Shown piece by piece: positions 13,478-60,746 of a stretch of DNA of 64,000 nucleotides. Source of the DNA: Patescibacteria group bacterium (GTDB lineage: Bacteria; Patescibacteriota; Minisyncoccia; Moranbacterales; UBA1568). Below the pieces are notes generated by a model, which was given only the letters and a program-made list of their open reading frames with translations, searched no databases and was not told where the DNA came from. The stretch spans positions 2,563-66,562 of the forward strand of contig JBBTWT010000003.1 of assembly GCA_038078615.1 (NCBI GenBank). The letters are read 5' to 3'. The position numbers and the translations under genes are program-made. The number at the start of each line of letters is the position of its first letter. Position 1 is the stretch's first letter.

Positions 13478-15080
13478 GGATAGCGGTTTTTATGCGTTTC
13501 AGACTCCGGTCTTTCCCCAAAACCCAAGCGACCTCGAAAGGCGAAGGTGAGCGCTGTGCTCCCGTGAGGGCGACACGCAAAGGCCAAAGGAAATCTCCCC
13601 TGCCTTTTCCCGCCTCAATGCCGCCCAGACTTTGGGCATGATCCTCTGCCGCCTCCATGAGGATTTTTTCGATACCCTCCTTGCTTTCCCATGTCGTATC
13701 ACCGAGAGCGATCAGGAGAGCCTGTGCTTTGACAAGAGCATCAAGCGTCATCGCTTTGGTATTCTGTTTCCAGACAAGAAGCGCGGGATCATAAGAAATC
13801 TCATCGGCGAAGAAGAATGGGTTGTTCTCGCCGACATCCGAGAGTTTCATGAGACGATCTTGCTCGACAACAAGCACGCGCTTCAGGTATGCTTCCGTCT
13901 GCATTTCCTGCGGTGTATTTCTGATCGCATCTTTTTCAAGAAAACCACCTGACTTGATTCTCCTATAAAGCTCGTCGATCGGAAGCTTTTTGATATATTC
14001 GGCGTTCATCCAATCCAGTTTTTTCAGATCGAACACGGCGCCGGACTTGTGGACATTTGCAAGATCGAATGTCTGTATCAATTCGTCAAGTGAGAAAATC
14101 TCCTGCGTGCTGCCGGCTCCGGGATTCCAGCCGAGCAGTGCCACGAAATTAATCAGTGCCTCTTTCAGATAGCCTTTCTTCAGATAGTCTTCGACAGCGA
14201 CGTCACCCTGACGTTTGGAAAGTTTGCTTTTGTCCGGATTGAGAAGGAGCGGGATATGGGCGAACTGCGGCATCTCCCAGGCGAACGCTTCATAGAGCAG
14301 GATATGTTTGGGCGTGCTGGAGAGCCACTCTTCGGCGCGGATGACGTGTGTGATCTGCATCAGGTGATCATCGACGACGTTCGCCAGATGATACGTCGGA
14401 AAACCATCCGACTTCATCAGCACCTGATCATCGATGTCTTGGACATTGATTTTCACTTGTCCTCGTACCATATCATCGAACGCCACATCGCCCCTCTCGG
14501 ACGGAATATTGAGACGGAGAACGTGCGGTTCGCCGGCTGTCAGTCTCTTCATCACTTCGTCAGGTGCGAGCGCGAGGCAATGTTTGTCGTATTTCGGCGC
14601 CTGCTTGTTGCGAGCTTGTTCCTCACGTACCGACGTCAGTCGTTCAGCCGTACAAAAACAATGATAGGCTTTGCCGCTTGTTACCAGTTCATCGGCATAC
14701 TTCTTGTAAATATCGAGACGCTCTGATTGGATATATGGCCCAGAGTTACCAATTTCAATGACATCAGGATAATTCTTTGACTCTTTGGTTTCTTTCTCTT
14801 GATTCGTGATTCCTCCCGCCTGCCGGACGGGCAGGGATTCCTGATTCTTCTTCAAAAAAACGCCTTCATCAGGGATCAGCCCTGTCTCATTGAGGCTTGT
14901 GACAAGACTCTCGATTGTTCCCGGGACAAAACGTTTCTGATCCGTATCTTCGATGCGCAGGATGAACGTGCCGCCGTTTTTCTTGGCGAAGAGATAGTTA
15001 TAGAGCGCGGTGCGCAGACCGCCGACATGGAGGTACCCCGTCGGTGATGGCGCGAAGCGGAGCCGAATATTATTTTTCAT
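13464..15080 (-). CDS. gltX: glutamate--tRNA ligase
   Basis: HIGH-type APSPTGYLHVGG, RIEDTD, KLSKR. Carries a ~30-codon insertion (see repeat at 14769-14858). Confidence 0.95.
   Translation of the reverse strand: MKNNIRLRFAPSPTGYLHVGGLRTALYNYLFAKKNGGTFILRIEDTDQKRFVPGTIESLVTSLNETGLIPDEGVFLKKNQESLPVRQAGGITNQEKETKESKNYPDVIEIGNSGPYIQSERLDIYKKYADELVTSGKAYHCFCTAERLTSVREEQARNKQAPKYDKHCLALAPDEVMKRLTAGEPHVLRLNIPSERGDVAFDDMVRGQVKINVQDIDDQVLMKSDGFPTYHLANVVDDHLMQITHVIRAEEWLSSTPKHILLYEAFAWEMPQFAHIPLLLNPDKSKLSKRQGDVAVEDYLKKGYLKEALINFVALLGWNPGAGSTQEIFSLDELIQTFDLANVHKSGAVFDLKKLDWMNAEYIKKLPIDELYRRIKSGGFLEKDAIRNTPQEMQTEAYLKRVLVVEQDRLMKLSDVGENNPFFFADEISYDPALLVWKQNTKAMTLDALVKAQALLIALGDTTWESKEGIEKILMEAAEDHAQSLGGIEAGKGRGDFLWPLRVALTGAQRSPSPFEVAWVLGKDRSLKRIKTAIQSLT
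14769..14858 (-). repeat. in-frame insertion in gltX: GC hairpin plus heptamer-phased A-rich tract
   Basis: Encodes FLKKNQESLPVRQAGGITNQEKETKESKNY between the conserved DEG and GPYxQSER blocks. Canonical GluRS sequences as I recall them (e.g. Thermus) have only about 7 residues there. Contains hairpin CCTGCC-GGACG-GGCAGG (14819-14835). Confidence 0.6.
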
Positions 15081-15139
15081 ACTAGTACGTCACTGAATGA
15101 CATCCTCATTATGCCTTTTTCTAAGCCAAAAGACAAGGA

Positions 15140-15168
15140 TTGACAAAATCATCAGAAAGGTGTATACT
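15140..15168 (+). promoter_or_regulatory. strong sigma70-like promoter with no downstream plus-strand CDS
   Basis: TTGACA (15140-15145), 17-nt spacer, TATACT (15163-15168). Confidence 0.45.
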
Positions 15169-15174
15169 GTACGG

Positions 15175-15337
15175 TTGCATAAAATAGCAACAGTGGAGGG
15201 AAACATGAGTCGATGACATAAATTAGGAGCAGGGTTTCGCGCAACCCGTGGTTGAGACTCCTGGGGTGTCCCAAAGGTCACAAAAAGACCAACTCAACCG
15301 ACTGCCGCCCCGATAGACTCTTATCTGGGCGGCTTTA
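15175..15337 (+). ncRNA. candidate small RNA (unknown family)
   Basis: Bounded by the promoter above and by a hairpin GCCGCCCCGATA-GACTCT-TATCTGGGCGGC + TTT (15304-15336). Interior has nested stems GGGTT/AACCC, GGTTGAG/CTCAACC, TGGG/CCCA and GGTC/GACC. Confidence 0.25.
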
Positions 15338-16034
15338 CATTGCCTATGATCTTCAGTGGGAAAACGATTGTGGCGTTCCAGATTCTTCGCCACCTTTTCG
15401 GCTGGAGGATGAGGCGCCAGAGCCATTCGAGGCCAAGAGTGCGGAGCAGCTTCGGGGCGCGCTTCTGTCTGCCAGTGAGATAGTCGAGACTGCCGCCGAC
15501 ACCCATCGCGAGCCTGATGCCATCCTGATCCTTGAGGCCATCGAGAAAGATTTCCTGTTCCGGAGCGCCGAAGTTGCACAGAACGAGCTTGTAGCTTGTA
15601 GCTTGTAGCTTGTAGCTTTCTGAATACTTTGGATCTATATCAGCACCGTCGATAATAAGACGAGAATATTCTTTTTGTAGTACTGCTTTTATTTCTTCGT
15701 ACGAACTCAAACCGTCTTTTCGGATAGCGAGATAGACACCGAGATTATTTTTCTCAGCAATGTGCAGGACTTCATCTATCAGATCGGCACCAGGAAAGCG
15801 GTGAATGAATTTTCCTTGAAATAGTCCGGCGAGCACGATACCGAAACCATCAGCGATACGGAGATCCGCATCGAGCAGAGCTCGGCGGAAAGCCCCATCT
15901 TTTTCTGCTCGGAGCAGAAATTCCGGATTGACCGTCGCGATCCGATGAAACCGCGATTCTTCCAAAAATTCCCGAATGCGGCTTATAATATCCTCACGAG
16001 AAAGATCATCGATCTCTATTCCGAAAATTTTCAT
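15321..16034 (-). CDS. WecG/TagA/CpsF family glycosyltransferase
   Basis: MKIFGIEIDD..., NPEFLL, GAPEQE, and the C-terminal LEWLWRLILQPKRWRR motif typical of the family. ATG at 16034; an upstream TTG at 16046 is an alternative. Confidence 0.85.
   Translation of the reverse strand: MKIFGIEIDDLSREDIISRIREFLEESRFHRIATVNPEFLLRAEKDGAFRRALLDADLRIADGFGIVLAGLFQGKFIHRFPGADLIDEVLHIAEKNNLGVYLAIRKDGLSSYEEIKAVLQKEYSRLIIDGADIDPKYSESYKLQATSYKLVLCNFGAPEQEIFLDGLKDQDGIRLAMGVGGSLDYLTGRQKRAPKLLRTLGLEWLWRLILQPKRWRRIWNATIVFPLKIIGNVKPPR
15586..15618. repeat. heptanucleotide tandem repeat (AGCTTGT) x4.7 inside the TagA-like CDS
   Basis: Direct reading. Encodes SYKLQAT-SYKL on the minus strand. Confidence 0.95.
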
Positions 16035-16037
16035 CCC

Positions 16038-16065
16038 AGTTACCAATTACGGATTACCGGTTACT
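16038..16065. repeat. heptamer-phased tract AGTTACC AATTACG GATTACC GGTTACT at the thpR stop / TagA-like start junction
   Basis: Direct reading. Spans the spacer 16035-16060 plus the thpR stop codon. Confidence 0.7.
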
Positions 16066-16609
16066 GTAGCGGGAACGCATCGATCTCTACGTAGCGGCGC
16101 TTGCCGTCGAGCGAGAGGCTCTCGAACACGGCGACCGTATCCACCGGCTCGATGACGGAGAGCGCTTCTTTCAGTTTCGGTTTCTCTCCGAGCTTCAGCC
16201 ACTTGGATTTCTTGATTTTCGCCAGCGTCACGTGGGGACGATAGACTTTCTTTTCCGTGATGAATGAGGAGAATTCCTTCTCTATCGCTTCGATGAGCCT
16301 GCGGAGATCGTCATTCGCTTCGCCGGCAAGCCAGATCATTTTCGGCGATTCCTCATTATCCGCGAATCGCATGCCGTTAAATACGAGCTCGAAAGACTCG
16401 ATACGTTTGCACACCTCCCCTACTTTGGCGCACATTTCCGGTATCTGCTCCTCCTGGACGAATCCCAGGAAAAACAGCGTCACGTGCAGATTTTCTTCCG
16501 CAGTACGAAGCACGGCCTCCTTGGGCCAGCCTTGCATTTCCTGTGTCAACCGCTTGCGCAGTGGCGCGGAAAGCGGGATACCGACGAAGAGTCTCCGTGT
16601 CTTGTTCAT
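16061..16609 (-). CDS. thpR: RNA 2',3'-cyclic phosphodiesterase (2H phosphoesterase, LigT/ThpR)
   Basis: Two H-x-T motifs (HVTLFFLG and HVTLAKI) with appropriate spacing. 182 aa. Confidence 0.85.
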   Translation of the reverse strand: MNKTRRLFVGIPLSAPLRKRLTQEMQGWPKEAVLRTAEENLHVTLFFLGFVQEEQIPEMCAKVGEVCKRIESFELVFNGMRFADNEESPKMIWLAGEANDDLRRLIEAIEKEFSSFITEKKVYRPHVTLAKIKKSKWLKLGEKPKLKEALSVIEPVDTVAVFESLSLDGKRRYVEIDAFPLQ

Positions 16610-16654
16610 AGGGCTAGTCTAGCTTGAATGAGCCAAAAAATCAACCTTTGACCG

Positions 16655-16835
16655 CTTTCCATGAAACTTCCATTTTCTTCCCATGCCCTCCGCCGAACAT
16701 ACTCGACGGAAGTCGCCGAGGAAAGCGCTGTCCGGCTAACTAAGCCACGCGTCACGCGCATTTCCTAGCGGCACTTCCGCCGCCTATGTGACCGGCGTAG
16801 GCCAAAAGGAAAGAAAATGGAAGTTTCAGGGAAAA
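16655..16835. repeat. ~180-nt imperfect foldback (rod-like hairpin) in the thpR-priA divergent spacer
   Basis: Outer arms TTTCCATGAAACTTCCATTTTCTT (16655-16678) and AAGAAAATGGAAGTTTCAGGGAAA (16811-16834) pair over 24 bp with one mismatch. Inner GC-rich arms remain partly complementary (CGCCG, CGGAAGT, GCCG, AGG, GCGC) down to an apical GGCT-AACTA-AGCC hairpin. Confidence 0.8.
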
Positions 16836-16875
16836 TCTACGAAAAATAAATCCGCTTCTATGTTAGAATGGATAT

Positions 16876-18858: not shown

Positions 18859-18863
18859 AACCT

Positions 18864-20394: not shown

Positions 20395-20409
20395 CCAATA
20401 GAGATACCT

Positions 20410-21231: not shown

Positions 21232-21259
21232 GAAATAATTTCAACGTATAATTGTCAGC

Positions 21260-21286
21260 AAAAACACGCTTATGAGGCGTGTTTTG
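21260..21286. terminator. bidirectional terminator between the rhodanese gene and groES
   Basis: AAAACACGC-TTATGAG-GCGTGTTTT, with an A-run before and a T-run after the stem. Confidence 0.7.
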
Positions 21287-21299
21287 TAACATTCAAAAA

Positions 21300-21575: not shown

Positions 21576-21606
21576 AGGTGTTTCAGATTATCTTTTTATA
21601 CCTCCT

Positions 21607-21635
21607 AGTATAGAGAATATAAGCACTCACGTCAA
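21607..21635 (-). promoter_or_regulatory. groES promoter overlapping CIRCE
   Basis: Minus strand TTGACG (21635-21630), 17-nt spacer, TATACT (21612-21607). Confidence 0.5.
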
Positions 21636-21646: not shown

Positions 21647-21690
21647 CCACAGAAGGTTCCTTGCGGGCGAGAGGCTGACTCTAGAAGAGG

Positions 21691-22998: not shown

Positions 22999-23010
22999 AG
23001 AGGTGCGTAT

Positions 23011-27941: not shown

Positions 27942-29144
27942 TTATTCCAATGTGGCTAATGTTTTTTCCGTGAAGCTCTTCCAGCTGAATTGTACCGCTT
28001 GAGGGGCGCTTCGGGCAATGAGCGATCCGCGCAGCGTCTCGTCTGTCAGCAGCCGCTCCATCTGCGCCGCCATCTCTTCGGCATTCTCCGGATCGACGTA
28101 GAGAACGGCGTCCCCGCCCACTTCCGGCAGCGACGATGTCCCGGAAACGAGAGCCGGCACGCTCATCCGAAGCGCCTCGAGCACCGGCAGGCCGAATCCC
28201 TCATACAGCGACGGGTAGACGAAAAACAGCGCGCCATGATAGAGGGCAGGCAGATCTTCATCCGGTACGAATCCGAGCAGCTTCACTTTTTCTTGCAATC
28301 CCAACTCTTCCACTAGGCCTCGTACATCCGTTGCCAGCTTATTATTTTTATCAAAAACCTTCCCACTGATCACAAGCGGCGGAACTTCTTTCCTTGACTG
28401 CTGACCGGCATTCGTTGTCTGTTGTCTGTTAACGGTTAACTGTTGATACGCCCGTAACAGCGTCTCCGCGTTCTTGCGGATCTCGAGTCCCCCGCCATGA
28501 TAGATATAGCCGGAATGCAGATCATATTTCTTCAGAACATCAGCGGCCGCTTCCGCAGTGATGACTCGGGAAAACCGCGGCGCGACATCGAGAAAGGCGA
28601 CCGATATCTTTTCGACGGGGATATCCAGCGCGCGCATCAGATCGCTTTTCGTGTGTTCCGATATCGCCACGATATGATCGGCCGCGCGGATGCCCCGTTC
28701 CACCGCCTTCCAGTGCCATGTCTGCCGCATGTTCCCGAGATACTGCGGAAACAGCCGCGGAATGATATCGTGGACTACCATCGTGTGCCGTATCGTTTTT
28801 TGCTGACCGCTGACCGTTGACTGAAAAATGGTCGATGACTGATAGAGGCTGAGGAAAGCGTCGCAGCCGTCTTTCGCCGCTTCGCGCGCCGCCTGTTTCT
28901 CCCAAAGCATCTTCCTGATCAGATCGTCGCGCTTCCAGAACGGCAGGAAGACGCGCATATGGAAATTCTCCGGCAACGAAAAGTCAAGTCCCGGCTCCTC
29001 CTCGCAATACAAAAAGAATTCCGAGTTTTGACATTTGGAATTTGAATTTTGACATTCCGCTAACTTTTGTAAAAAGTTAGCGGTCACCTGCCCGATCCCG
29101 GTTCCCGGCTTGCGCAGAAATGAGGCGTTGATTCCGATTTTCAT
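27942..29144 (-). CDS. glycosyltransferase family 4 carrying three in-frame low-complexity tracts
   Basis: MKIGINASFLRKPGTGIGQ... and PSLYEGFGLPVLEALRMSVPALVSGTSSLPEVGGDAVLYVDP. ATG at 29144 preferred over 29225. Confidence 0.85.
   Translation of the reverse strand: MKIGINASFLRKPGTGIGQVTANFLQKLAECQNSNSKCQNSEFFLYCEEEPGLDFSLPENFHMRVFLPFWKRDDLIRKMLWEKQAAREAAKDGCDAFLSLYQSSTIFQSTVSGQQKTIRHTMVVHDIIPRLFPQYLGNMRQTWHWKAVERGIRAADHIVAISEHTKSDLMRALDIPVEKISVAFLDVAPRFSRVITAEAAADVLKKYDLHSGYIYHGGGLEIRKNAETLLRAYQQLTVNRQQTTNAGQQSRKEVPPLVISGKVFDKNNKLATDVRGLVEELGLQEKVKLLGFVPDEDLPALYHGALFFVYPSLYEGFGLPVLEALRMSVPALVSGTSSLPEVGGDAVLYVDPENAEEMAAQMERLLTDETLRGSLIARSAPQAVQFSWKSFTEKTLATLE
28393..28448. repeat. heptamer-phased tract (..GTTGTCT GTTGTCT GTTAACG GTTAACT GTTGATA) inside the GT4 CDS
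   Basis: Direct reading. Encodes QQLTVNRQQTTNAGQQSRKE on the minus strand. Confidence 0.85.
28802..28843. repeat. heptamer-phased tract (GCTGACC GCTGACC GTTGACT ...) inside the GT4 CDS
   Basis: Direct reading. Encodes QSTVSGQQKT on the minus strand. Confidence 0.8.
29025..29082. repeat. heptamer-phased tract (GTTTTGA CATTTGG AATTTGA ATTTTGA CATTCCG) abutting an 11-bp-stem palindrome, inside the GT4 CDS
   Basis: Encodes ECQNSNSKCQNSE. The palindrome CGCTAACTTTT-GTA-AAAAGTTAGCG (29058-29082) encodes TANFLQKLA. Confidence 0.75.
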
Positions 29145-30798: not shown

Positions 30799-31752
30799 AT
30801 GAGGCTTATCGTCAATCTCCCGGCTTTCAACGAAGAGGAGAAAATCAGCGGCACCATTCAAAAAATTCCGCGTCACATCGATGGCATCGACGAAGTGCTC
30901 ACACAGGTGATCGATGACGGATCGCAGGACAAGACGGTCGCTGTCGCCAAGGCTGCCGGCGCGGATTTCGTGTATTCGAACGGCGTCAATCGTGGTGTCG
31001 GCAAGACATTCCGCGTCGCCGTGGAGCGCGCGCTCGAGAACGGCGCCGACATCATGGTGAATATCGATGCCGACGGGCAGTTCGATCCTCTCGACATCGG
31101 AAAACTCATCCGTCCGATCCTCGACGGGCAGGCCGATATGGTGAGCGCCGACCGTTTCTCCCTGCGTACGGCGAAAAATATCCCGTGGATCAAGGACGTG
31201 CTCAACCGGTTCGCCGCGAACATCATCGGCCGCTTCATGAACGCGTCGATTTCCGATCTCACCTGCGGTTTCCGCGCCTACAACCGTGAGACGATGCTGC
31301 GTCTCAATCTCCCTGGCGACTACACCTACACGCAGGAAGTGATCATCGACGCGCTCGGAAAAAACCTGAAAGTATCGTGGATACCGGTCGCGGTGACGTA
31401 TTTCGAAGGCCGCAAATCGCGCGTCGTCAAAAGCATCGCGAGCTACGTCAACAACAGTTTCCGCATCATCCTGAAAGCGGTGCGCGATGTCCGTCCGATG
31501 AAGTTTTTCGGCATTCCGGGACTCTGCCTGATACTGCTCGCCCTCATAGTCTTCATCGGCTTCCTCTGCTTCTACTTCCAGGATTTCAAGATCTCCCCGT
31601 ATCGCAATTACCTCCTGTTTTCGGCGGTGACATTCCTCATCGGCCTGCAGTTTGTCGTCTTCGCGCTCATCGCCGATATGATCAAGTCCAACCGCAAGCT
31701 CACCGAGGATCTGATGTATCTCGTGAAAAAGGAGAAATATTCTAAAAAATAA
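30799..31752 (+). CDS. GT2 polyprenyl-phosphate glycosyltransferase (DPM1/GtrB/ArnC-like) with C-terminal TMs
   Basis: VNLPAFNEEEKI, VIDDGSQDKT, NIDADGQ, plus two C-terminal TM helices. Confidence 0.8.
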   Translation: MRLIVNLPAFNEEEKISGTIQKIPRHIDGIDEVLTQVIDDGSQDKTVAVAKAAGADFVYSNGVNRGVGKTFRVAVERALENGADIMVNIDADGQFDPLDIGKLIRPILDGQADMVSADRFSLRTAKNIPWIKDVLNRFAANIIGRFMNASISDLTCGFRAYNRETMLRLNLPGDYTYTQEVIIDALGKNLKVSWIPVAVTYFEGRKSRVVKSIASYVNNSFRIILKAVRDVRPMKFFGIPGLCLILLALIVFIGFLCFYFQDFKISPYRNYLLFSAVTFLIGLQFVVFALIADMIKSNRKLTEDLMYLVKKEKYSKK

Positions 31753-31883
31753 CCAATCACCAAATTCCAAGATACAAGGAATAATCAATGACCAATTTCC
31801 GAATAGTTAATTCATGCTTGACTTTTGGTGATTGGAAATTGAAATTTCTTGGTGATTGGCACTTGGTTATTGGTACTTATTTT
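31751..31883. repeat. intercistronic inverted heptamer-motif array (CCAATCACC ... GGTGATTGG x2, GGTTATTGG)
   Basis: CCAATCACCAAA (31753-31764) is the exact complement of TTTGGTGATTGG (31824-31835). The A/C-rich form follows the stop codon and the G/T-rich form precedes the next ATG. Confidence 0.8.
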
Positions 31884-32963
31884 ATGCGCATCTTGTTTAT
31901 ATCTAGGGCTTACCCACCGATCATAGGCGGCATCGAGAACCAGAATCGCGCGCTGTCCGTGTGGCTCGGACGACTCGCTTCCGTCACGACGATCGCCAAC
32001 CGTCACGGCAAGAAGATGCTGCCGCTGTTTCTTCCGTACGCGACGGCAAGGGCTCTGGTTACCGCCTATCGCTATGATGTCGTACTGCTCGGCGACGGGG
32101 TGCTCGCCATCGTCGGATTTCTCATCAAGCTCCTCTACCCGAAAAAACCGGTGGTGGCAGTCGTGCATGGACTCGATCTGATGTACGGGAATGCCCTCTA
32201 TCAGGCATTCTGGATGAAGCGCTTTCTCCCTTCGCTCGATATGCTGATCGCCGTAAGCGGCGAAACCCGTGCCGCCGCCATCGCGCAAAATATCCCGGAA
32301 TGGAAGATCGCCGTCATCAGGAACGGCGTCGAAACGGAGGCGTTCCGAGGAGAGTATGAGAGGACGGATCTGGAAAAGCTACTCCATGAAAACCTTGCCG
32401 GGAAGTGCGTGCTTCTGACCACCGGACGCCTCGCCAGACGCAAGGGAGCCGCCTGGTTCATCCGCGCCGTGCTGCCGCGGTTGCCGCAGACGATAGTCTA
32501 TGTTCTCGCCGGCGCCGGACCGGAAGAAGAGAATATCAGAACCGCCGTGCAGAAGACAGGAGTCAACAACCAGGTAAGAATACTTGGCCATGTCACTGAC
32601 GCAGAACGCAATCTCCTCTTGCATACGGCAGATATTTTCATCCAACCGAACATCCGTGTCCCCGGAGACATGGAGGGGTTCGGCATCGCGGTCATCGAAG
32701 CCGCCGCCTGCAAACGGCCGGTCGTCGCCTCGAATCTGGAGGGACTGAAGGAAGCCATCTGCCATGATGAGAACGGCGTCCTCGTCGAGCCGGAAAATCC
32801 CGAGGCTTTTGCAAAAGCCATCCTCTCGCTCATCGAAAATGCGGATGAACGTTGGGCATTGGGAGAACGGGCGCTCCGATATACCGAAGAACATTATCAT
32901 TGGAATATCATCGCGCGACTCTATATCGAGACCCTGAACAGACTCATCGAGAAAACCAGATAA
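31884..32963 (+). CDS. glycosyltransferase family 4
   Basis: MRILFISRAYPP... and DMEGFGIAVIEAAACKRPVVASNLEGLKEAI. The 32 upstream codons of ORF 31788 are translated repeat sequence and are excluded. Confidence 0.8.
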   Translation: MRILFISRAYPPIIGGIENQNRALSVWLGRLASVTTIANRHGKKMLPLFLPYATARALVTAYRYDVVLLGDGVLAIVGFLIKLLYPKKPVVAVVHGLDLMYGNALYQAFWMKRFLPSLDMLIAVSGETRAAAIAQNIPEWKIAVIRNGVETEAFRGEYERTDLEKLLHENLAGKCVLLTTGRLARRKGAAWFIRAVLPRLPQTIVYVLAGAGPEEENIRTAVQKTGVNNQVRILGHVTDAERNLLLHTADIFIQPNIRVPGDMEGFGIAVIEAAACKRPVVASNLEGLKEAICHDENGVLVEPENPEAFAKAILSLIENADERWALGERALRYTEEHYHWNIIARLYIETLNRLIEKTR

Positions 32964-37800: not shown

Positions 37801-38008
37801 AATTCCAAATATCCTGTAGGTTTTCTGAAACTTTCCTTTTTTCTTCCTCTGGTCTCTGGCGGTAACATTTTTGACGAGTGAGTCGGTAACGGTCGAGCGT
37901 GACGGATGGTCTCGACAGGACAGCTCCCTGTTCGACAGAACGAGTCAGAAATGTTCGACGGAGACCATGGAATGAAAAAAGGAACTTCAGAAAACTCAAC
38001 GAAAAACT

Positions 38009-40783: not shown

Positions 40784-40796
40784 GCTGTTTTTATTT

Positions 40797-42275
40797 ATGA
40801 AAAACTTCTCTTCCGCGCTCGTGTGGCTTACGGTCTCCGAGATCATCTACAATATTTCCGGCTATGTCATCCATTCGGCTGCCGGACGCATCTTAGGACC
40901 CGAAGAATACGGCCGGTTCGGACTCACCGTGACCTTGACCACGATGATCATCATTCTCATCGGCAACGGCATCCCGACCGCCATGTCGAAGTATCTGAGC
41001 GAGGTGTTCGAGAGCGCCCCGGAAAAGATATACGGCATCAAGCGTTCCGCTGCGAAACTCCAACTCATCCTGATGAGCTCTGTGACGATAGCATTTTTCC
41101 TCCTGGCACCGGTATTTGCCGCACTCCTCCGCGATCCGAGCCTGACCCCCTTGTTCCGGCTTTCTTCGCTCATCATCCCCGCGTTCGCAGCGGCATCGTT
41201 TTATTTCTATTATTTCACCGGCCTGCACTTTTTCCGGATGCAAGCGATACTGAAAACGTTCCGCGCATTCGCGCGCGTCGGTTTCATCGTGATACTCGCA
41301 TACCTCTTCAGCACAGAAGGCGCTATCAGCGGCTACATCCTCGCGCCGCTTCTGATATTCGTCATCGGCTTCGTCTGCGACGGCATCCTCACTAGAAAGT
41401 ATTTCCCTGCCGCGCATGAGAACAAGGCTGATTCCGCATTCTCGATGAGAACCATCCTCCAGTACGCCGGGCCGCTCACCCTGTTCCTTCTGTTCTATGA
41501 ATTCATCCTCACTCTCGACCTCTACTTCGTGAAAAGCCTCCTCCAAAGCGACTACCTCACCGGCATCTACAACGCCGCTATCACCGTCGGCCGCATTCCC
41601 TACTATCTTTTCTACGCGCTCGCCATCATCCTGCTCCCGGCCATTTCCAAATCAACATCGGAAAACGATTCTCTCGCGACAAAAAACCTCGTCGAGAAAT
41701 CCCTGCGCCTCCTGATATTCCTTCTCTTCCCGATGGTCACGCTGCTCATCGCCTATGCGCCGCAAATCCTCCATATCTTCTACGGTGCCAGGTACGCGGC
41801 CGCGGCTCTGCCGATGCAGGTCTTCGCCATCGGAGTCGGCTTCCTCACGGTTTTTTATGTCTTGAGTTTCACCCTCAATGGCGCCAACCTCGTCAAAATC
41901 CCACTGAAACTCGCGTTTTTCGGATTTCTCGGTATGATCGCGCTCAACTTCATCCTCATACCTCGGTGGGAACTGGTGGGCGCCGCCCTCGCGACAACCA
42001 TCGTCTCTTGTATTCTGATGATACGTATCCTCATCTACGTGAAGATGCATTTTCACACCCACATCTCGCTCAAGACACTCATCTTCGCTTCTCTCGGCGC
42101 CGTGATCATAGGGATAGCCGCGCGCTATTTGCCTCACGGGACATATGACTTCATGCTTTTCGGAACTATCCTCTTCTTCGCCTATTTCGGACTTCTCAAG
42201 CTTTTCGGCGAGCTGACTGAAGAAGATTTAAAACCGTTCAAAAAGATTTTTCGGAAACAAACCTCGACTGATTGA
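40797..42275 (+). CDS. Wzx-type oligosaccharide flippase (MOP superfamily)
   Basis: About 14 TM helices. N-terminal GYVIHSAAGRILGPEEYGRFGL is typical of polysaccharide biosynthesis (Wzx/PST) proteins. Confidence 0.75.
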   Translation: MKNFSSALVWLTVSEIIYNISGYVIHSAAGRILGPEEYGRFGLTVTLTTMIIILIGNGIPTAMSKYLSEVFESAPEKIYGIKRSAAKLQLILMSSVTIAFFLLAPVFAALLRDPSLTPLFRLSSLIIPAFAAASFYFYYFTGLHFFRMQAILKTFRAFARVGFIVILAYLFSTEGAISGYILAPLLIFVIGFVCDGILTRKYFPAAHENKADSAFSMRTILQYAGPLTLFLLFYEFILTLDLYFVKSLLQSDYLTGIYNAAITVGRIPYYLFYALAIILLPAISKSTSENDSLATKNLVEKSLRLLIFLLFPMVTLLIAYAPQILHIFYGARYAAAALPMQVFAIGVGFLTVFYVLSFTLNGANLVKIPLKLAFFGFLGMIALNFILIPRWELVGAALATTIVSCILMIRILIYVKMHFHTHISLKTLIFASLGAVIIGIAARYLPHGTYDFMLFGTILFFAYFGLLKLFGELTEEDLKPFKKIFRKQTSTD

Positions 42276-42362
42276 CATTTCTTCGGGAATCCTCTAGATT
42301 GACCCCATCAAGCCTGATAGGTTTGTTTGTTGTATCCACCTCAACGTATAGGAGATTCATCA

Positions 42363-43845
42363 ATGAGTACGTTTACATCCAAAGTATTTCCAACTAAGGT
42401 CATCCAGTTGGCTGGTACCAAAGAAACCATCGTTTGTGGCGGTCGCGATCAATTTCCTCTCCTGGTCAAGGGATTCCATGGAAAGAACAATATAGGTGTC
42501 ATCGGCTGGGGCTCGCAAGGTCCCGCCCAAGCCATGAACCTACGTGACTCGCTTCGCGGCACCAACATCAGGGTGAGAGTCGGCTTGCAAGCAAGACGGT
42601 AGCCCTTCGCGGGACAAGGCAAGGGCAGCCGGTTTCAACACGGAAAATGGTACGCTGGGTGAGATGTACAGCGTCATCAGTCAATCAGACATCGTCCTGT
42701 TGCTCATTTCCGATGCCGCCCAGGCCGAAAACTGCCAAGCTATTTTCTCTGCCATGAAAAGCGGCAGCGTACTCGGGCTCTCACATGGTTTTCTCATAGG
42801 TCACCTGAAAAACATCGGCGTAGCCTTGCCTAGCCACATCAATGTGATCGGGGTATGTCCAAAAGGTATGGGGGTGTCAGTCCGACGGCTCTATGAACAG
42901 GGCACGGAAATAAACGGCGCCGGCATCAATTGCAGCTTCGCGGTAGAGCAAGATATCGAAGGTGCCGGAAAAATGACTGACATCGCTCTCGCATGGGCCA
43001 TCGCTATTGGTGCCCCCTACGTTTTTCAGACGACGCTCAAGGATGAATACATCAGCGATCTTTTCGGGGAGCGCGGCATCCTTCTCGGTGGCCTCCATGG
43101 CATCGTCGAAGCACTGTATCGCCGTTTTTCTGAAAAAGACCCCTTCCACAGCTGTAGCCTTGCATTTCACCAGTCGGTGGAAAATATCACCGGTGTAATC
43201 AGCCACCATATTTCGCAAGCCGGACTCATCGACCTCTACGATAAGCTGGATGAGCAAGGTAAGAGAGTGTTCGAGAGGATATACGCCAGCGCCTATGGGC
43301 CAGCGTACGTTCTCCTCGAGGAGATCTATGACGAGGTCAGTAGCGGAAACGAAATCCGCAGTGTCATCATGGCCGGTCAAAGATTGAAGCAATACCCCAT
43401 GAGCGAAATTGGCAACACAGCCATGTGGCGAATCGGTGAGAGGGTACGAGCCGATAGATCATCTGTGGTACCCGTTGTCAACAAGTTCACTGCCGGCTTG
43501 TACTGTGCTGTCATGATGGCGCAGGTCGACGTGTTAATAAAAAACGGCCATTGCATGAGCGAGGTGTGCAATGAATCCATCATCGAGGCGACGGATTCGC
43601 TCAACCCATACATGCATGCCAGGGGCATCGCGTATCTGGTGGACAACTGCTCCACCACGGCACGACTTGGGGCACGCAAATGGGCACCGCGTTTCGAAGC
43701 GATGATAAACCAGGAAGTTTTTGTCGCGTACGACAGTCATGTAGACCGAAAGCCTATCGAGGCTTTCCACAGTCATCCGGTACATGAAGCGCTCGCCGTA
43801 TGCGCAGAGCTTCGTCCGCCGGTAAACATCTCGGTCGGTGTGTAA
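42363..43845 (+). pseudogene. ilvC: ketol-acid reductoisomerase, long plant-type class II form, interrupted by a +4 frameshift
   Basis: The N-terminal part (GWGSQGPAQAMNLRDSL...VRVGLQ) stops at 42600-42602. The +1 frame continues QDGSPSRDKARAAGFNTENGTLGEMYSVISQSDIVLLLISDAAQ...LGLSHGFL...CPKGMGVSVRRLY...NCSTTARLGARKWAPRF...VHEALAVCAELRPPV. The break coincides with the tandem CAAGCAAG at 42588-42595. Confidence 0.8.
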
Positions 43846-43871
43846 ACCAAATATTCCGCACATGCGGAAAA

Positions 43872-43930
43872 GGGCAGGTAAAAGGAAGTAACATCTCCTT
43901 CTCCTGCCCGATTTTTTTTATAAATATACT
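43872..43930 (+). terminator. rho-independent terminator after ilvC
   Basis: GGGCAGG ... CCTGCCC stem followed by GATTTTTTTTA. Confidence 0.65.
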
Positions 43931-43938
43931 GCTACCGC

Positions 43939-45465
43939 CTACTGCTCCCAGCGATAGACATCGATAGCGCCGCGCACCTGATCGTTGCTCACCTTGGTCA
44001 AATTTTTCGTCAGAAATTCTTTCGCATCCTTGCCGACATAATCATAATCATTGTCGGAGAGTATCACCCAGCCGGTCTGATATTCCGTCATCAGCTTCTC
44101 GAGATCAGCCTGCGAGAGCCGGGTCCTGGAAATCTCATCACCGAGATCGTATACCGGCACATTCGCGCCGCTAAAGTAATAATTGCGCACATTGCGTGTC
44201 ACAAGCACATCGGTCGCTACGTGATTTTTCTTGAAATATGCAAATACTTTCCGATAGTTCGGGTTGCTGCCGGAAGAGGTCTCATGGTAGGTATTGTTCT
44301 CCTCCGCGAAGTAGCCGAGATTCGGCACCAGAACGAAGAGCAGGCCCAGCACGGCGAGGGATTTCTTCGTCGTAACGATGCCGAACTTTTCACACGCGAG
44401 TTTCCAAACGCCGAAGACGCCGGCCGCGACGAGTATCATCGCGAACGTCTGGATGAAAAAGATGTACTGCGCGCCGATATTTCTCCGCCACAGCCATATC
44501 GCCATCGCGAGCGGTACGAGAAACGACAAAGAGAGCCACAGCGATTCTTTCGGCAGATTCTCGCGCTTGGCGATCCACCATCCGCCGAGTAACATAAGCA
44601 AAACAGCTAGGAGAGGATGGTAGTAATCGCGGAGCACATAGCTCACATACCCATAATGATCATCGAAGAAAATAAGCCCGCCGGCGAAAGAGCGAAAAAT
44701 TTTCGGAAAAAACATCGCGACAGCGATCGCTCCGACAAGACCGAGAATGAAAATAATGGAGTATTTGTGCCGCCATTCCCCATTCCGGCGGTATTCCTGG
44801 AACGCTCGCGCCACAAGGTAGATGGCTACGGAAAAAACTAGCGTTCCGGCCAATTGATGCGTCAGAAGCGAAAACGCGAAAAAGAATATGGCGGCAAGAG
44901 CAAAATGCACGTGAATACCGAATTTCTCTCCGATCAAACGGCACCAGCGCATACGACCGGTATAGGCCTTTTCCAAAGCGAGAAAAGCGAAAGTGGCAGC
45001 AGCGAGATAGAGAGGAAAAAACATCGCGTACATCCGGAGTGTCCGGTCGAAAACGATACCACTGACGGAAACCGCGAAAAACGCCGCCGCGAGAAGCGCA
45101 ATTTCCCGGCGCTTCGTCATCACAGACGCCGCCCAAAAAACCGCCAGTATCGAAATGATGCCCCACAGCACGCTCACGGATCGGGCCGCCGTCTCGGTCG
45201 GCGGCAGAAAGCGGAACAGCTGCGCCACCTGCCATTTGTACACGACCGCCCGCTCATCGCGCGGCACGTTGATATTCACTTCGGACAGACGGCCGAAATT
45301 GAAATCCCACGCCCGCCACTCTCCCGTCTGCGAGTATCCGTACGACGAATTCATATCGAGAAACTCATCCGACACGAAAGAATTGTTGCCAAGCCCGGAA
45401 AACCGCAGTCCCGTTCCGAAAATGACGATGGCTGCAAGCGCGATGATTGTTTGTTTCCAGCTCAT
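43939..45465 (-). CDS. GT-C fold glycosyltransferase (ArnT/PMT_2-like, family 39/83 type)
   Basis: At least 10 TMs. First external loop GLGNNSFVSDEFLD carries the acidic DE motif. Soluble C-terminal domain. Confidence 0.7.
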   Translation of the reverse strand: MSWKQTIIALAAIVIFGTGLRFSGLGNNSFVSDEFLDMNSSYGYSQTGEWRAWDFNFGRLSEVNINVPRDERAVVYKWQVAQLFRFLPPTETAARSVSVLWGIISILAVFWAASVMTKRREIALLAAAFFAVSVSGIVFDRTLRMYAMFFPLYLAAATFAFLALEKAYTGRMRWCRLIGEKFGIHVHFALAAIFFFAFSLLTHQLAGTLVFSVAIYLVARAFQEYRRNGEWRHKYSIIFILGLVGAIAVAMFFPKIFRSFAGGLIFFDDHYGYVSYVLRDYYHPLLAVLLMLLGGWWIAKRENLPKESLWLSLSFLVPLAMAIWLWRRNIGAQYIFFIQTFAMILVAAGVFGVWKLACEKFGIVTTKKSLAVLGLLFVLVPNLGYFAEENNTYHETSSGSNPNYRKVFAYFKKNHVATDVLVTRNVRNYYFSGANVPVYDLGDEISRTRLSQADLEKLMTEYQTGWVILSDNDYDYVGKDAKEFLTKNLTKVSNDQVRGAIDVYRWEQ

Positions 45466-52487: not shown

Positions 52488-52532
52488 ATACCGTTCATAA
52501 TACGTGTTGTATGTGTCGGATCGTGTTGCCTG

Positions 52533-52568
52533 ATATCACTTTTTACGCAATTGCGTAAAAAGTGATAT
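52533..52568. promoter_or_regulatory. 36-nt perfect palindrome, copy 2 (same 28-nt core as 34959-34986)
   Basis: ATATCACTTTTTACGCAATTGCGTAAAAAGTGATAT. Ends 46 nt upstream of the minus-strand ATG at 52487. Confidence 0.8.
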
Positions 52569-52612
52569 TTCATAAGCGAGATGAATACCAATTTATTTTT
52601 TACTGTCTCTTC

Positions 52613-52658
52613 ATAAAAAAATATATCATAATTCCACGGTCGTGGAATTATGATATAT
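52613..52658 (-). terminator. terminator with an 18-bp perfect AT-rich stem overlapping the GT4 stop codon
   Basis: ATATATCATAATTCCACG-GT-CGTGGAATTATGATATAT (52621-52658). On the minus RNA it is followed by UUUUUU. Confidence 0.7.
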
Positions 52659-54218: not shown

Positions 54219-54222
54219 AAGT

Positions 54223-58173: not shown

Positions 58174-58234
58174 AAATGGTCAAAAGGGAAATTGTATTGT
58201 CTCCAGTATATCCAAAACGTGAGAAAAAACAACG

Positions 58235-59614
58235 CTATACTCCTATCCCGAAATAGGTGAATCCTTCTTTTTCCGCTTCCTGGCGGTCGAAGATGTTGCG
58301 GCCGTCGACGATGACGCGCTGCTTCATCCGCGCGGCAAGCTCCGGATACTCCGTCGTACGGAATTCATCCCACTCGGTCATAATCAAAAGCGCATCCGCG
58401 CCTTTCACGGCATCATACGCATTGAGAGCATACTTCACCCGCTTGTCCGGGAACATCGCTTTGAAGCTCTCAATCGCCACCGGATCGAAGGCTCGCACCG
58501 AGGCCCCCGCCTTGAGCAGCGCTTCGATGACATAGAACGCCGGCGCCTCGCGTACATCGTCGGTGCGCGGTTTGAACGACAGTCCCCAGACCGCTATCGT
58601 CTTGCCCTTCAGGCTCTTGAAATGTTTCTTGAGAAAGGCGATGGGACGGAGCTTCTGCATATCATTCACCTTGTCGGCCGCTTCGACGATACTGAACTTC
58701 GAACCGTATTCCTTGCCCGTCTGCATCAGCGCCTGCACGTCCTTGGGGAAGCACGATCCGCCGTACCCGATACCGGCATAGAGGAAGCGCGAGCCGATAC
58801 GGCTGTCCGCGCCCATACCGCGCGCCACTTCTTTCACGTTGGCGCCGGACTTCTCGCAGAAATTCGCGATCTCGTTGATGAAGGTGATCTTGGTCGCGAG
58901 AAAGGCATTGGCCGCGTACTTGATGAGCTCCGCGCTGCGCACGTCCGTGATGATCACCGGTCGTCCCGCGCGGGCGATGGGACGATAGATCTTTTCCATC
59001 AGTTCCTTGGCGCGATCCGACGACACGCCCAAGACGACACGGTCCGGATTGAGGAAGTCCTTGATCGCCGCGCCCTCGCGCAGGAATTCCGGATTGGAAA
59101 CAATATCGAATTCGCCCCCGCCCAAATCACTCTGTGAACCGTGGCGGGCAAGTTTCCCCTTACTCGCGTGCATGATGATATCGCGGCACTTGTCAGCCGT
59201 CCCGACCGGTACCGTCGATTTATTGACGAGAATCTTGTAGTTTACCCCATGAACCGCCTTGCCAGGTTCCGCGGGGCCGTTCAAATTTTTGCCGAACGTC
59301 TCCGCTACCGCATACACATACTGCATATCCGCCTTGCCGGTCTTCTTGTCCTCCGGCGTGCCGACCGCGCTGAACACGACATCGGCCTCGCGGATAGCCT
59401 GCCCCACGGACGCCGTGAACGACAGACGTCCCTCTTTCACATTCTTCTCCACCAGTTCATCTAAGCCCAGCTCGTAGATCGGCATGATACCTTTCTTCAG
59501 TTTGGCTATCTTCTGTTTGTCGATATCCGCGCAGATGACCGTATGTCCGAGTTCCGCCATACACGTCCCCGTCACGAGCCCGACATACCCCGTCCCAATA
59601 AAAGTTAATTTCAT
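58235..59614 (-). CDS. ugd: UDP-glucose 6-dehydrogenase
   Basis: MKLTFIGTGYVGLVTG, GIGYGGSCFPKDV catalytic Cys, WGLSFKPRTDDVREAP. ATG at 59614 preferred; the 8 upstream codons are repeat sequence. Confidence 0.9.
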   Translation of the reverse strand: MKLTFIGTGYVGLVTGTCMAELGHTVICADIDKQKIAKLKKGIMPIYELGLDELVEKNVKEGRLSFTASVGQAIREADVVFSAVGTPEDKKTGKADMQYVYAVAETFGKNLNGPAEPGKAVHGVNYKILVNKSTVPVGTADKCRDIIMHASKGKLARHGSQSDLGGGEFDIVSNPEFLREGAAIKDFLNPDRVVLGVSSDRAKELMEKIYRPIARAGRPVIITDVRSAELIKYAANAFLATKITFINEIANFCEKSGANVKEVARGMGADSRIGSRFLYAGIGYGGSCFPKDVQALMQTGKEYGSKFSIVEAADKVNDMQKLRPIAFLKKHFKSLKGKTIAVWGLSFKPRTDDVREAPAFYVIEALLKAGASVRAFDPVAIESFKAMFPDKRVKYALNAYDAVKGADALLIMTEWDEFRTTEYPELAARMKQRVIVDGRNIFDRQEAEKEGFTYFGIGV

Positions 59615-59640
59615 ACTTTTATAATCATCAATTATCAAAA

Positions 59641-59780
59641 TCCAATAACCAGAAAATTACCAATCACTAAATCATTTATTTTGAAGTTTCGTGATTATCG
59701 ACGAAAGAATCTTTTTTAATTCAAGTGTCCTATCCTCAAGATCGAATTTCTTTTTTGGTAATTGATCACTGGTCATTGGA
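59641..59780. mobile_element. MITE-like cassette: imperfect terminal inverted repeats built from CCAATnACC motifs enclosing a truncated ORF
   Basis: Left TCCAATAACCAGAAAATTACCAA (59641-59663) versus the rc of right TTGGTAATTGATCACTGGTCATTGGA (59755-59780): 9 + 12 nt match with one mismatch and a 3-nt indel. Further GGTCATTGG/GATGATTGG units extend to 59812. Confidence 0.6.
59672..59758 (-). pseudogene. 28-codon remnant resembling the N-terminus of four-helix-bundle (23S rRNA intervening-sequence type) proteins
   Basis: Minus-strand frame reads PKKKFDLEDRTLELKKILSSIITKLQNK*. The FDLE-[ED]-RT-x-x-[FL] opening matches my recollection of that family. No start codon and far too short to be intact. 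Confidence 0.4.
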
Positions 59781-59804
59781 ATTTCCTTGATGATTGGAGT
59801 TTGG

Positions 59805-60746
59805 TCATTGGTTCCTTACCGTTCGTACGGAGTAATTCATCCGGCCGCGCTGACGATAGTATGTCTTCACCGCGATATCCACGAGGATGCCGAAGATGAA
59901 CAGCTGCACCCCGACGAGTATGAAGAGCGTCCCGACGAGCGGCCAGATGCGTTCGGCGAGCGACGCGCCGTAGAATATCTTCTCCACGAACATCCACACG
60001 AGAATCGACGAGCCGACCAGACCGAGGAGCAGTCCCGTCCCGCCGAAAAGATGTATCGCACGATACGAGTACTTGCGCCAGAACCAGATGAAGAGCATAT
60101 CGACGAATCCCTTGATGGCGCGTTTCCAGTTGTATTTCGTCTGGCCGTGGATGCGCGGGTGATGAGATACCTTGACCTCCGCCACGCGGAAACCGTCGAG
60201 CGCGAGCAAGGCCGGCATGAAGCGGTGCATCTCGCCGAAGAGATCCATATCCCGGAAACATTCCCTGCGATACGCCTTCAGGCTGCAGCCGGAATCATGG
60301 ATGCCGTCCTTCACGAGCAGCTTGCGAAGCAGATTCGCCCCGCGCGAGAAGAAACGCTTCATCAGCGAATCCTGACGCTTGTGCCGCCAGCCGGACACCA
60401 CGTCGTAGCCCTCGTTCATTTTTTCGAGCAAGAGCGGGATATCAGCCGGATCGTTCTGCAGATCACCGTCGAGCGTCACGACGATCTCGCCTCGCGCCGC
60501 CTTGATCCCCGCGTCGAATGCCGCCGTCTGGCCGAAATTCTTACGGAACCTGATCAATGTGAGCGGCGACAGGCCGACAGTCTCTTCGACCGTCTTGTCA
60601 CCCGAGCCATCATCCACGAAAACAATTTCAAAAGACCTACCGATCTTCATGACAGCCTCGTGAATCCTCCGATGCAATTCCTTCACATTCCCCTCCTCGT
60701 TGTACAGCGGGACAACGACGGATAAATAAGGTTGATTTTCCAGCAT
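59805..60746 (-). CDS. GT2 polyprenyl-phosphate glycosyltransferase (ArnC/GtrB-like) with two C-terminal TMs
   Basis: LSVVVPLYNEEGN, VFVDDGSGDKT, TLDGDLQNDP, plus two C-terminal TM helices. Confidence 0.85.
   Translation of the reverse strand: MLENQPYLSVVVPLYNEEGNVKELHRRIHEAVMKIGRSFEIVFVDDGSGDKTVEETVGLSPLTLIRFRKNFGQTAAFDAGIKAARGEIVVTLDGDLQNDPADIPLLLEKMNEGYDVVSGWRHKRQDSLMKRFFSRGANLLRKLLVKDGIHDSGCSLKAYRRECFRDMDLFGEMHRFMPALLALDGFRVAEVKVSHHPRIHGQTKYNWKRAIKGFVDMLFIWFWRKYSYRAIHLFGGTGLLLGLVGSSILVWMFVEKIFYGASLAERIWPLVGTLFILVGVQLFIFGILVDIAVKTYYRQRGRMNYSVRTVRNQ

Follow-up and report, generated by a model that had tools for sequence, protein, structure and literature searches.

The 64,000-nucleotide stretch analysed here, referred to as the window, comprises positions 2,563 to 66,562 of contig JBBTWT010000003.1 (assembly GCA_038078615.1), and contains short tracts of tandem 7-nt (heptanucleotide) units that lie both between genes and, in frame, within them. 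The window has a G+C content of about 52% and the gene content is that of an ordinary bacterium. Among about 55 open reading frames (ORFs), Pfam identifies GltX, a WecG/TagA transferase, a LigT-like phosphoesterase, PriA, Def, Fmt, several glycosyltransferases of types GT2 and GT4, an O-antigen-ligase-like protein, two UDP-glucose dehydrogenases, RtcB, thymidylate kinase (Tmk), a polysaccharide flippase, PMT-like transferases, and an AdoHcy hydrolase. An NCBI metagenome-assembled genome with the label 'Patescibacteria group bacterium' has proteins 100% identical to the Tmk, GT4, and WecG of the window, and the close homologues of these three all belong to Candidatus Moranbacteria / Moraniibacteriota. 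A cyanobacterial origin, which the heptamers first suggested, was rejected, as the proteins point to Moranbacteria and the HIP1 octamer GCGATCGC occurs twice against 4.9 expected. We conclude that the tracts are probably heptanucleotide simple-sequence arrays that persist at hot spots, are remodelled by slippage or conversion, and are filtered by selection to spacers and tolerant loops. The positions of the tracts and the associated features are given in Table 1.

Table 1. Heptanucleotide tracts of the window and the features that carry them.
Feature	Position	Strand	Description
WecG/TagA-family glycosyltransferase gene	15321-16034	minus	Pfam PF03808 match
WecG tract	15586-15618	minus	(AGCTTGT)x4.7 on the + strand, sense (ACAAGCT)n; encodes SYKLQATSYKL
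Degenerate array	16038-16065	minus	sense CAGTAAC CGGTAAT CCGTAAT TGGTAAC; stops in all three frames
GT4 site C	28414-28448	minus	GTTGTCT GTTGTCT GTTAACG GTTAACT GTTGATA (+ strand); encodes QQLTVNRQQTT
GT4 site B	28802-28822	minus	GCTGACC GCTGACC GTTGACT (+ strand); encodes STVSGQQ
GT4 site A	29025-29052	minus	GTTTTGA CATTTGG AATTTGA ATTTTGA (+ strand); encodes CQNSNSKCQNS
Intercistronic spacer	31753-31884	+	GT2 stop (31750-31752) to GT4 start (31885); long imperfect hairpin
Tmk site 1	40304-40331	+	AGAACCA AGAACCA AAATCCA ATCACCA; encodes KNQNPITK
Tmk site 2	40545-40577	+	(TCATCAC)x4.7, 100% matches; encodes ITHHSSLITH
Array over Tmk stop	40760-40789	+	AAAGCTA TAAGCCA AAAGCTG TAAGCTG; 8 nt before the start of the next gene (40797)
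Intercistronic spacer	59615-59804	minus	GT2 (59805-60746) to UDP-glucose dehydrogenase (58235-59614)

The tracts listed in a prior sequence-only reading of this DNA are all recovered in place by inspection of the sequence, by Tandem Repeats Finder, and by a lag-7 scan, and they are real and non-random, with period 7 in excess over both shuffles and other periods. With a tract defined by lag-p identity as at least 15 matches in a 21-nt scanning window, and with first-order Markov shuffles as controls, there are nine tracts at period 7 where 0.43 are expected (shuffle maximum 2), and at a stricter cut of at least 16 of 21 there are six where 0.08 are expected. The shuffles lose codon structure and the other periods in the real sequence are therefore the firmer control; periods 4, 5, 8, 10, 11, and 13 give 0-3 tracts each, and periods 9 and 14 give four each. 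The nine lag-7 tracts are those listed earlier together with one over the Tmk stop codon (40760-40789). Tandem Repeats Finder reports seven period-7 rows in the window, two of which are perfect with 4.7 copies, (AGCTTGT)x4.7 in the WecG gene and (TCATCAC)x4.7 at Tmk site 2; further rows lie at 28414-28430, 28802-28821, 29026-29052, and 40302-40318.

The excess extends to relatives. The comparison set consists of 80 loci of 20 kb around Tmk relatives in species-representative genomes, of which 75 are Moranbacteria loci totalling 1.2 Mb, and the latter contain 90 tracts at period 7, 0-5 at periods 4, 5, 8, and 10, and 38 at period 9. At period 7 there are 13 arrays that repeat their unit perfectly three or more times, and periods 5, 6, 8, and 9 yield 0-3 each. 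The distribution is patchy, with 1-16 tracts per 10 kb in the nearest relatives of the window and a few other lineages, and none in many lineages. The units are diverse: the 143 perfect duplications, of which chance would account for about half, fall into 103 classes with none dominant. They are A+T-rich (74%) and free of G-runs. Across the window and the 20-kb loci, 36 of 96 tracts lie in or edge the roughly 8% of sequence outside ORFs, a proportion that depends on rough ORF calls in the relatives, which over-predict coding sequence. Many contigs with Moranbacteria-type tmk neighbourhoods have record titles that name 'uncultured Bdellovibrionales', 'Pyrinomonadaceae', or 'Candidatus Fimivivens' (L002, L004, L005, L008, L016, L037, L074, and others), and these labels or the binning look wrong.

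Two simpler descriptions of the units were rejected. A single motif family is suggested by CCAATNACC, which occurs eight times in the window against 1.5 expected, but seven of these are in two intergenic clusters and one is in a Tmk tract, and enrichment is confined to these places; the looser CCAATNAYY is not significant. A CAA/TTG core common to all units was likewise dropped: roughly half of the units have it where about a third would be expected, an enrichment that is no more than modest (z 3.6).

Six of the window tracts are in frame inside three enzymes, the WecG/TagA transferase, a GT4 glycosyltransferase, and thymidylate kinase. This agrees with the sequence-only reading, which placed tracts between cistrons as well as in frame within genes, and translation shows that it correctly read their products as 7-residue peptide repeats, including SYKLQATSYKL and ITHHSSLITH. 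The WecG tract has no stop in any sense frame, but every one of its three antisense frames is interrupted by stops. In the orthologue alignments (A1 for Tmk, A2 for GT4, and A4 for WecG) each in-gene tract coincides with a hypervariable site of variable length. At GT4 site A the orthologues have CQSSNIKYQ, FSIFNFQFS, STVNSQQST, or nothing; at site B the short-form orthologues are 7-9 aa shorter; and site C is also length-variable, with the short-form GT4 of L091 having seven residues at site B and 9 aa at site C, neither with an array. GT4 orthologues elsewhere carry perfect arrays, for example (AAAATCA)x4 in L089. In Tmk, most Moranbacteria have a conserved ANRIARFFKGQKTFEPGKEKAVT segment at site 1, and two groups instead have heptamer arrays with differing units; these two groups lie apart in a quick and rough neighbour-joining tree. 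At Tmk site 2 other orthologues have either different arrays or a conserved helix-like segment.

AlphaFold models place the same sites in poorly defined coil. The GT4 model has a mean per-residue confidence score (pLDDT) of 87, with three dips at the tract sites, all in coil: to 73 at site A, to 64 at site B, and to 53 at site C, the lowest-confidence coil of the model (mean for residues 241-250, with 246-251 below 50). In the Tmk model (mean pLDDT 81; gene callers start the window protein at the second ATG) the sole segments below 50 are residues 55-68 and 126-131, which match the two tract regions, and region 121-140 scores 62-67. Because the orthologue sites are hypervariable and the models have poorly defined coil there, the in-gene tracts are lineage-specific replacements or insertions in tolerant loops; the sequence-only reading had put forward lineage-specific insertion in surface loops as a point to test.

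The same peptides recur at different places. SYKLQ(A/T)TSYKL is present in the window WecG, at GT4 site B of P0146, at Tmk site 2 of P0002 and P0003, and in the O-antigen-ligase-like protein of L009, and STVNSQQST and FSIFNFQFS likewise recur across genes and genomes.

Intergenic arrays overlap stop codons, adjoin start codons on their upstream side, or, in two spacers, form the arms of hairpins that reach from stop to start. The LigT-like gene (16061-16609) takes its stop codon from the array at 16038-16065, which ends 3 nt ahead of the WecG start, and the array at 40760-40789 likewise provides the stop codon of Tmk. The GT2-to-GT4 spacer at 31753-31884 has a 5' arm of CCAATCACC-type units (31753-31800) and a 3' arm of GGTGATTGG and GGTTATTGG units (31826-31880), corresponding to inverted repeats I7 and I8, and its predicted RNA fold is -45.6 kcal/mol (z -5.1) on the sense strand and -34.3 kcal/mol (z -2.9) on the antisense strand. 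On the sense strand of the spacer at 59615-59804, CCAATGACC-type units follow the stop, GGTTATTGG and GGTAATT units precede the start, and the loop is about 100 nt; the fold is -47.1 kcal/mol (z -2.7) in sense and -42.8 kcal/mol (z -1.95) in antisense, and a spacer scan using mononucleotide shuffles gives z -5.2 on the + strand, which is antisense to both genes. The two hairpins have only CCAATNACC-type units in common. Such structures are also seen in many array pairs of relatives, where adjacent arrays are often inverted pairs that fold far better than shuffles (-31 and -45.8 versus -12.4 in L002, and -30.4 versus -14.2 in L004), and inverted array pairs also occur within tmk site 2 of L002, L009, L020, and L048; the six in-gene tracts of the window are single arms. 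Searched against the window, Rfam covariance models reach the gathering score at two tRNAs alone, and have no match at the tract regions.

Several other spacers of the window also fold strongly. The divergent spacer between the LigT-like gene and priA (16610-16875) contains a near-perfect hairpin of about 190 nt with arms at 16656-16682 and 16808-16834 (-91.8 kcal/mol on the + strand and -107.8 on the minus strand; z about -9 to -10); a syntenic relative has about 24 nt at this spacer, and the window hairpin has the look of an inserted palindrome with no relation to heptamers. Upstream of rtcB, the spacer (37801-38008; L081 7666-7862) has a long hairpin of -79.9 kcal/mol (z -6.7; antisense -67.7) which is kept in the relative with apparent compensatory changes in the outer stem, and it matches no Rfam family at the gathering score; the outer stem is partly 7-periodic (CTCTGGT CTCTGGC) and the arms are not clearly heptamer arrays. 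The spacers at 2921-2997, 5391-5485, 43846-43938, and 52488-52647 fold well beyond shuffles (z about -5 to -8) and have no heptamer arms; the third separates two convergent genes and is a possible bidirectional terminator.

The sequence-only reading had further proposed a rule of orientation, in which the A/C-rich form follows stop codons or lies within coding sequences and the G/T-rich form sits just before start codons. The pattern is present, but it is mostly a by-product of stops and hairpin geometry and not an independent rule. Of the six tracts in coding sequence (CDS), five have no stop in any sense frame, and reversal would bring stops into one to three frames of every one of the six; the in-CDS orientation is thus mostly forced, because a reversed tract would contain stop codons. 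Arrays upstream of start codons have stops in two or three frames. An A/C-rich arm after the stop and a G/T-rich arm before the start are one configuration and not two facts, because an inverted repeat with an A/C-rich arm at its 5' end reads A/C-arm-first on both strands. The same orientation logic has already been described for TAACTGA repeats (PMC4679880).

Base-level comparison with the syntenic relative (GCA_040960315.1), which has about 76-80% nucleotide identity to the window, shows how the tracts change. At Tmk site 1 the two are equal in length and differ by point changes alone. At Tmk site 2 the same 51 nt are filled in the relative by unrelated AGCTATA / AGCTGCA-type arrays instead of (TCATCAC)n. 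GT4 site B is again of equal length, with TCAACGG TCAGCGG TCAGCAA in the window and TCAACAA TCAACAA GCAACAA in the relative; the substitutions are periodic, with one change repeated across adjacent units, a pattern that suggests concerted evolution, as judged from few cases. GT4 site A, GT4 site C, and the WecG site (ATTCAGG ATTCTCA ATTCATG ATTCATG in the relative) contain unrelated arrays, with length differences of +3, +18, and -6 nt, respectively, all multiples of three. Spacers vary more widely: the GT2-to-GT4 spacer is 132 nt in the window versus 34 nt in the relative (GTAGCTT ATAGCTG TTAGCTC ATAGCCG), and the LigT-to-WecG junction has a 4-nt spacer in the relative and about 22 nt extra in the window. 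The Tmk stop codon TAA of the window is CAA in the relative, and the relative's Tmk continues to ...QKLQAIL.

Similar changes separate the sister species represented by L054 and L066. A 95-nt heptamer hairpin in a spacer of L054 (5672-5769) corresponds to 6 nt in L066 (5730-5750), and in another spacer (near 6920 in L054, 6902-6933 in L066) there is a 21-nt indel of exactly three units (TTACCAA TTTCTAA TTTCTAA). A hairpin in L018 which had appeared to be a mobile second copy lies in the orthologue of the L054/L066 spacer at about 6.9 kb, and is thus the same locus. The hot spots of arrays persist across species, and their unit sequences and copy numbers change much more rapidly than the flanking DNA.

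The explanation we favour, and consider probable, is that these are simple-sequence arrays that stay at hot spots while their units are replaced. Arrays would be born and remodelled via slipped-strand mispairing together with conversion between neighbouring units, and template switching between the two arms of a hairpin is a possible further route of conversion. Within genes, selection would keep stop-free orientations, lengths in multiples of 3 nt, and surface-loop positions, and from such a filter both the 7-residue peptide repeats and the apparent orientation rule would follow. The in-gene arrays sit at loop-coding sites which, by the alignments and models, tolerate any sequence. Hairpins and pre-start arrays could have roles in frame-independent stops, mRNA stability, or translation initiation; these are possible and are not required. 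Loops longer than about 4 nt escape mismatch repair. As for the step of seven, one published idea relates it to the footprint of the polymerase on DNA (Mrazek 2007, as cited in PMC4679880 and PMC4692102). The many unrelated units, the lack of a transposase in the window, and the precedents that each feature has in other phyla are also counted in favour of this explanation.

Several observations weigh against it. There is no copy-number polymorphism among six contigs of the relative from three samples, which are 100% identical, these being few and closely linked samples, and L009 and L074 carry the same three arrays identically. The indel spectrum of 19 related locus pairs peaks neither at 7 nt, a length with 11 indels next to 15 at 6 nt and 12 at 8 nt, nor at 14 nt, and it includes the single 21-nt indel of three units; this test is weakened because local alignments break at replaced arrays. 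The constant-length swap of units at Tmk site 2 is not easily made by slippage alone and may need conversion from other arrays or re-insertion. Insertion and excision would also fit two further features: arrays pair into hairpins, and close species differ in having or lacking a whole hairpin. The scan of the source genome spans the 64-kb window and only that much of this genome.

Insertion is the core of the alternative that the tracts are miniature mobile palindromic elements, similar to Rickettsia palindromic elements or miniature inverted-repeat transposable elements (MITEs), in which hairpins built from heptamers would land in spacers or, in frame, in genes, and decay afterwards. The inverted pairs that fold better than shuffles, including those in tmk site 2 of four relatives, would be expected of such elements, as would the gain or loss of whole hairpins between close species, the recurrence of SYKLQ, STVNSQQ, and FSIFNFQ types from gene to gene and genome to genome, and the fact that conserved proteins carry tracts in frame at what the alignments and models predict to be tolerant surface sites. 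We nonetheless regard this as unlikely: the tracts lack a common element sequence, defined ends, and target-site duplications, units vary in sequence between sites of one genome with none of the 103 classes dominant, most in-CDS tracts of the window are single arms with no partner, the ~55 ORFs of the window include no transposase or other candidate enzyme by Pfam, and the apparent second-locus copy in L018 proved to be an orthologous spacer. Unrelated arrays at one site with unchanged length in relatives are also unlike the decay of a single insertion, and the tracts do not appear to be one mobile element family. A different possibility, which we rate as distinctly unlikely, is that the arrays are not products of passive slippage and that an active, lineage-restricted process with a 7-nt step repeatedly overwrites the same loop sites and spacers, the candidates being templated copying or conversion between arrays, or enzyme-driven addition. 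If true, it would explain the constant-length unit swaps, the units shared between unrelated genes and genomes, and the pairing into hairpins, and it would be a general and unrecognised source of variation in protein loops and spacers of bacteria, because similar heptamer systems are present in cyanobacteria, Beggiatoaceae, Xanthomonas, and the acidobacterial locus L076. Chance, codon-usage periodicity, or assembly artefact is by contrast extremely improbable. The source is a metagenome-assembled genome, the weaker tracts (29025-29052 and 16038-16065) are each unremarkable alone, and the shuffles lack codon structure; against this, the excess is specific to period 7 relative to other periods of the same real sequence, and the phenomenon recurs in separate metagenome-assembled genomes, dozens of them. 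Misassembly is unlikely because the tracts are at most 35 nt, far shorter than reads, and because database copies agree: clusters P0001, P0121, and P0241, which are 100% identical to the window Tmk, GT4, and WecG, are present in NCBI and ENA (P0121 also in Logan), possibly from one assembly, and the NCBI and Logan assemblies of the syntenic relative are 100% identical across its arrays.

Two further alternatives give the tracts a function. Phase variation, in which the gain or loss of one unit shifts the frame and switches surface-polysaccharide enzymes, has a precedent in neuO of E. coli K1, where full translation requires a copy number divisible by three (PMC13001214). Most window tracts do lie in a cell-envelope glycosylation cluster (WecG, GT4, GT2, and UDP-glucose dehydrogenase), a 7-nt unit shifts the frame, and two arrays are perfect with 4.7 copies. 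However, tracts also occur in tmk, as a rule an essential gene, and relatives have them in many further genes, most arrays are degenerate and, at 3-5 units, short, and are expected to slip rarely, the orthologues examined are all in frame, and the contigs of the relative show no length variation; neuO arrays have 3-53 copies and are often out of frame, and neither pattern is seen here, so that switching is very unlikely. We find it equally hard to credit that the tracts are selected cis-acting RNA elements, with hairpins and G/T-rich pre-start arrays controlling mRNA stability, processing, termination of stray translation, or initiation, and with the in-gene tracts as spill-over. The hairpins reach exactly from stop to start, both heptamer-armed spacers fold more strongly in sense than in antisense, as do the rtcB-upstream spacer (in which the arms are not clearly heptamer) and the orthologous hairpin of L054, L059, and L015, pre-start arrays have stops in two or three frames and no obvious Shine-Dalgarno sequence, and TAACTGA repeats are similarly positioned upstream of start codons in Beggiatoaceae (PMC4679880). 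But the hairpins are not conserved in close relatives, as the spacers of 132 versus 34 nt and 95 versus 6 nt show, no Rfam family matches these regions, and the strand asymmetry is a handful of cases, several of them orthologous, which is reversed in the in-CDS pairs and in spacer 52488-52647. Folding of sense versus antisense strands was accordingly set aside as proof of an RNA role, since the spacer trend has too few independent cases and is reversed inside genes.

As simple-sequence arrays, the Moranbacteria tracts are best read as a heptanucleotide type of simple-sequence repeat (SSR) that is known from other phyla, in a lineage that is new for it. The sequence-only reading was not aware of a formal description of a heptamer-phased counterpart to the Rickettsia elements; this is wrong, as long SSRs, the Calothrix repeats, the Xanthomonas and Nostoc repeats, TAACTGA repeats, and neuO are all published. 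The full-text literature search did return nothing linking such heptamer repeats to the Candidate Phyla Radiation (CPR)/Patescibacteria.

Heptanucleotides are reported to be the most abundant class of long SSRs in most prokaryotic genomes (Mrazek 2007, as relayed in PMC4679880 and PMC4692102), and three tandemly repeated heptanucleotides are described in the cyanobacterium Calothrix PCC 7601 (PMC4692102). The resemblance of our tracts to these long SSRs is considerable: both consist of tandem 7-nt units that are over-represented relative to other lengths, with many different units per genome and a patchy phylogenetic distribution, and the Moranbacteria tracts, like the long SSRs, may be dispersed mainly in spacers. 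The cyanobacterial repeats are reportedly those named STRR by Mazel et al. in 1990, with units CCCCAGT, TTGGTCA, and CAACAGT, and are said to be a feature of heterocystous cyanobacteria. The Moranbacteria arrays differ in being short (3-5 units) and mostly degenerate, with a large share in frame in housekeeping and envelope enzymes. Strict membership of STRR1-3 was rejected, as the host is a member of the Moranbacteria, HIP1 is not enriched, and the STRR units have no perfect duplications; perfect tandem duplications of these units, of TAACTGA, of GGGAATC, and of GGGGATT are absent from the sequences examined, where the only STRR look-alikes are degenerate (TTTGGTCATTGG at 59801-59812 of the window and CAACAGTCAACA in L020).

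In placement there is a parallel with the TAACTGA direct repeats, known from marine Beggiatoaceae and also from some cyanobacteria and Bacteroidetes, which lie just upstream of starts or over upstream stops, have stops in all frames in the forward orientation, and are translated in ORFs in the reverse orientation alone, as a 7-residue repeat (PMC4679880). That system has one dominant unit, with related heptamers rare as repeats (PMC4679880), whereas the Moranbacteria have many units; in addition, its in-ORF cases are mostly at protein ends or in hypothetical proteins, and those in Moranbacteria occupy loops in the interior of conserved enzymes, where different species reuse the same sites. The GGGAATC / GGGGA(T/C)T repeats of Xanthomonas and Nostoc are intergenic arrays, some of them inverted pairs that can form stem-loops, and they too vary in length and sequence between close genomes at the same intergenic positions (PMC4692102). 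Their units are G-rich and quadruplex-capable, in contrast to the A+T-rich Moranbacteria units that lack G-runs, and the GGGAATA type is present in L076. This acidobacterial ('Candidatus Angelobacter') outgroup locus has arrays of (GGGAATA / GGGATTA)n and (CTATTGG / CTGTTGG)n at 10627-10773 and 10896-11142, directly downstream of tmk, which resemble the Xanthomonas/Nostoc type.

Other repeats are also carried within coding sequence. The neuO gene of E. coli K1 has an in-CDS heptanucleotide array that is translated as a heptad peptide repeat when the frame is kept (PMC13001214); it is one long, perfect, 5'-terminal array of 3-53 copies with demonstrated on/off switching, and the Moranbacteria arrays are short, mostly imperfect, and internal, with no variation observed. 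Borg tandem repeats evolve fast and add disordered, low-complexity peptide repeats, with homologues carrying repeats at the same place; their in-ORF units are always divisible by three, unlike the 7-nt unit in Moranbacteria, which keeps the frame in blocks of three units with all three frames translated (PMC9879509). The likeness to Rickettsia palindromic elements, of which the sequence-only reading took the tracts to be a counterpart, lies in the toleration of small repeats in frame at surface-exposed parts of conserved proteins, and in the hairpins that some of them form. The Rickettsia elements make up families of about 100-150 bp with a conserved consensus. The Moranbacteria tracts are not one dispersed family, and instead differ in unit from site to site, have a 7-nt building block and no common consensus, and turn over in place.

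What is less usual in the Moranbacteria is the frequent use of the internal loops of conserved enzymes, with the same sites rewritten between species. Why 7-nt repeats accumulate in some bacteria is a long-standing question, and arrays in candidate-phylum genomes are informative because these genomes are very small, with short spacers and little spare DNA; orthologous rewritten sites, such as those in thymidylate kinase, are a compact comparative system for both the origin of arrays and the selective filter. For annotation and phylogenetics, segments encoded by tracts are non-homologous, low-complexity stretches in otherwise alignable proteins, and tracts add or remove stop codons. The value of the finding is moderate, because knowledge of this kind of element is unchanged by it.

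Separately from the tracts, we note that the ilvC gene (ketol-acid reductoisomerase) of the window is split into ORFs 42327-42602 and 42664-43845 by an apparent 1-nt frameshift near 42590-42602. The ilvC block of about 1.7 kb (42216-43946) is missing from the syntenic relative, and could be a recently acquired pseudogene or reflect a sequencing error.

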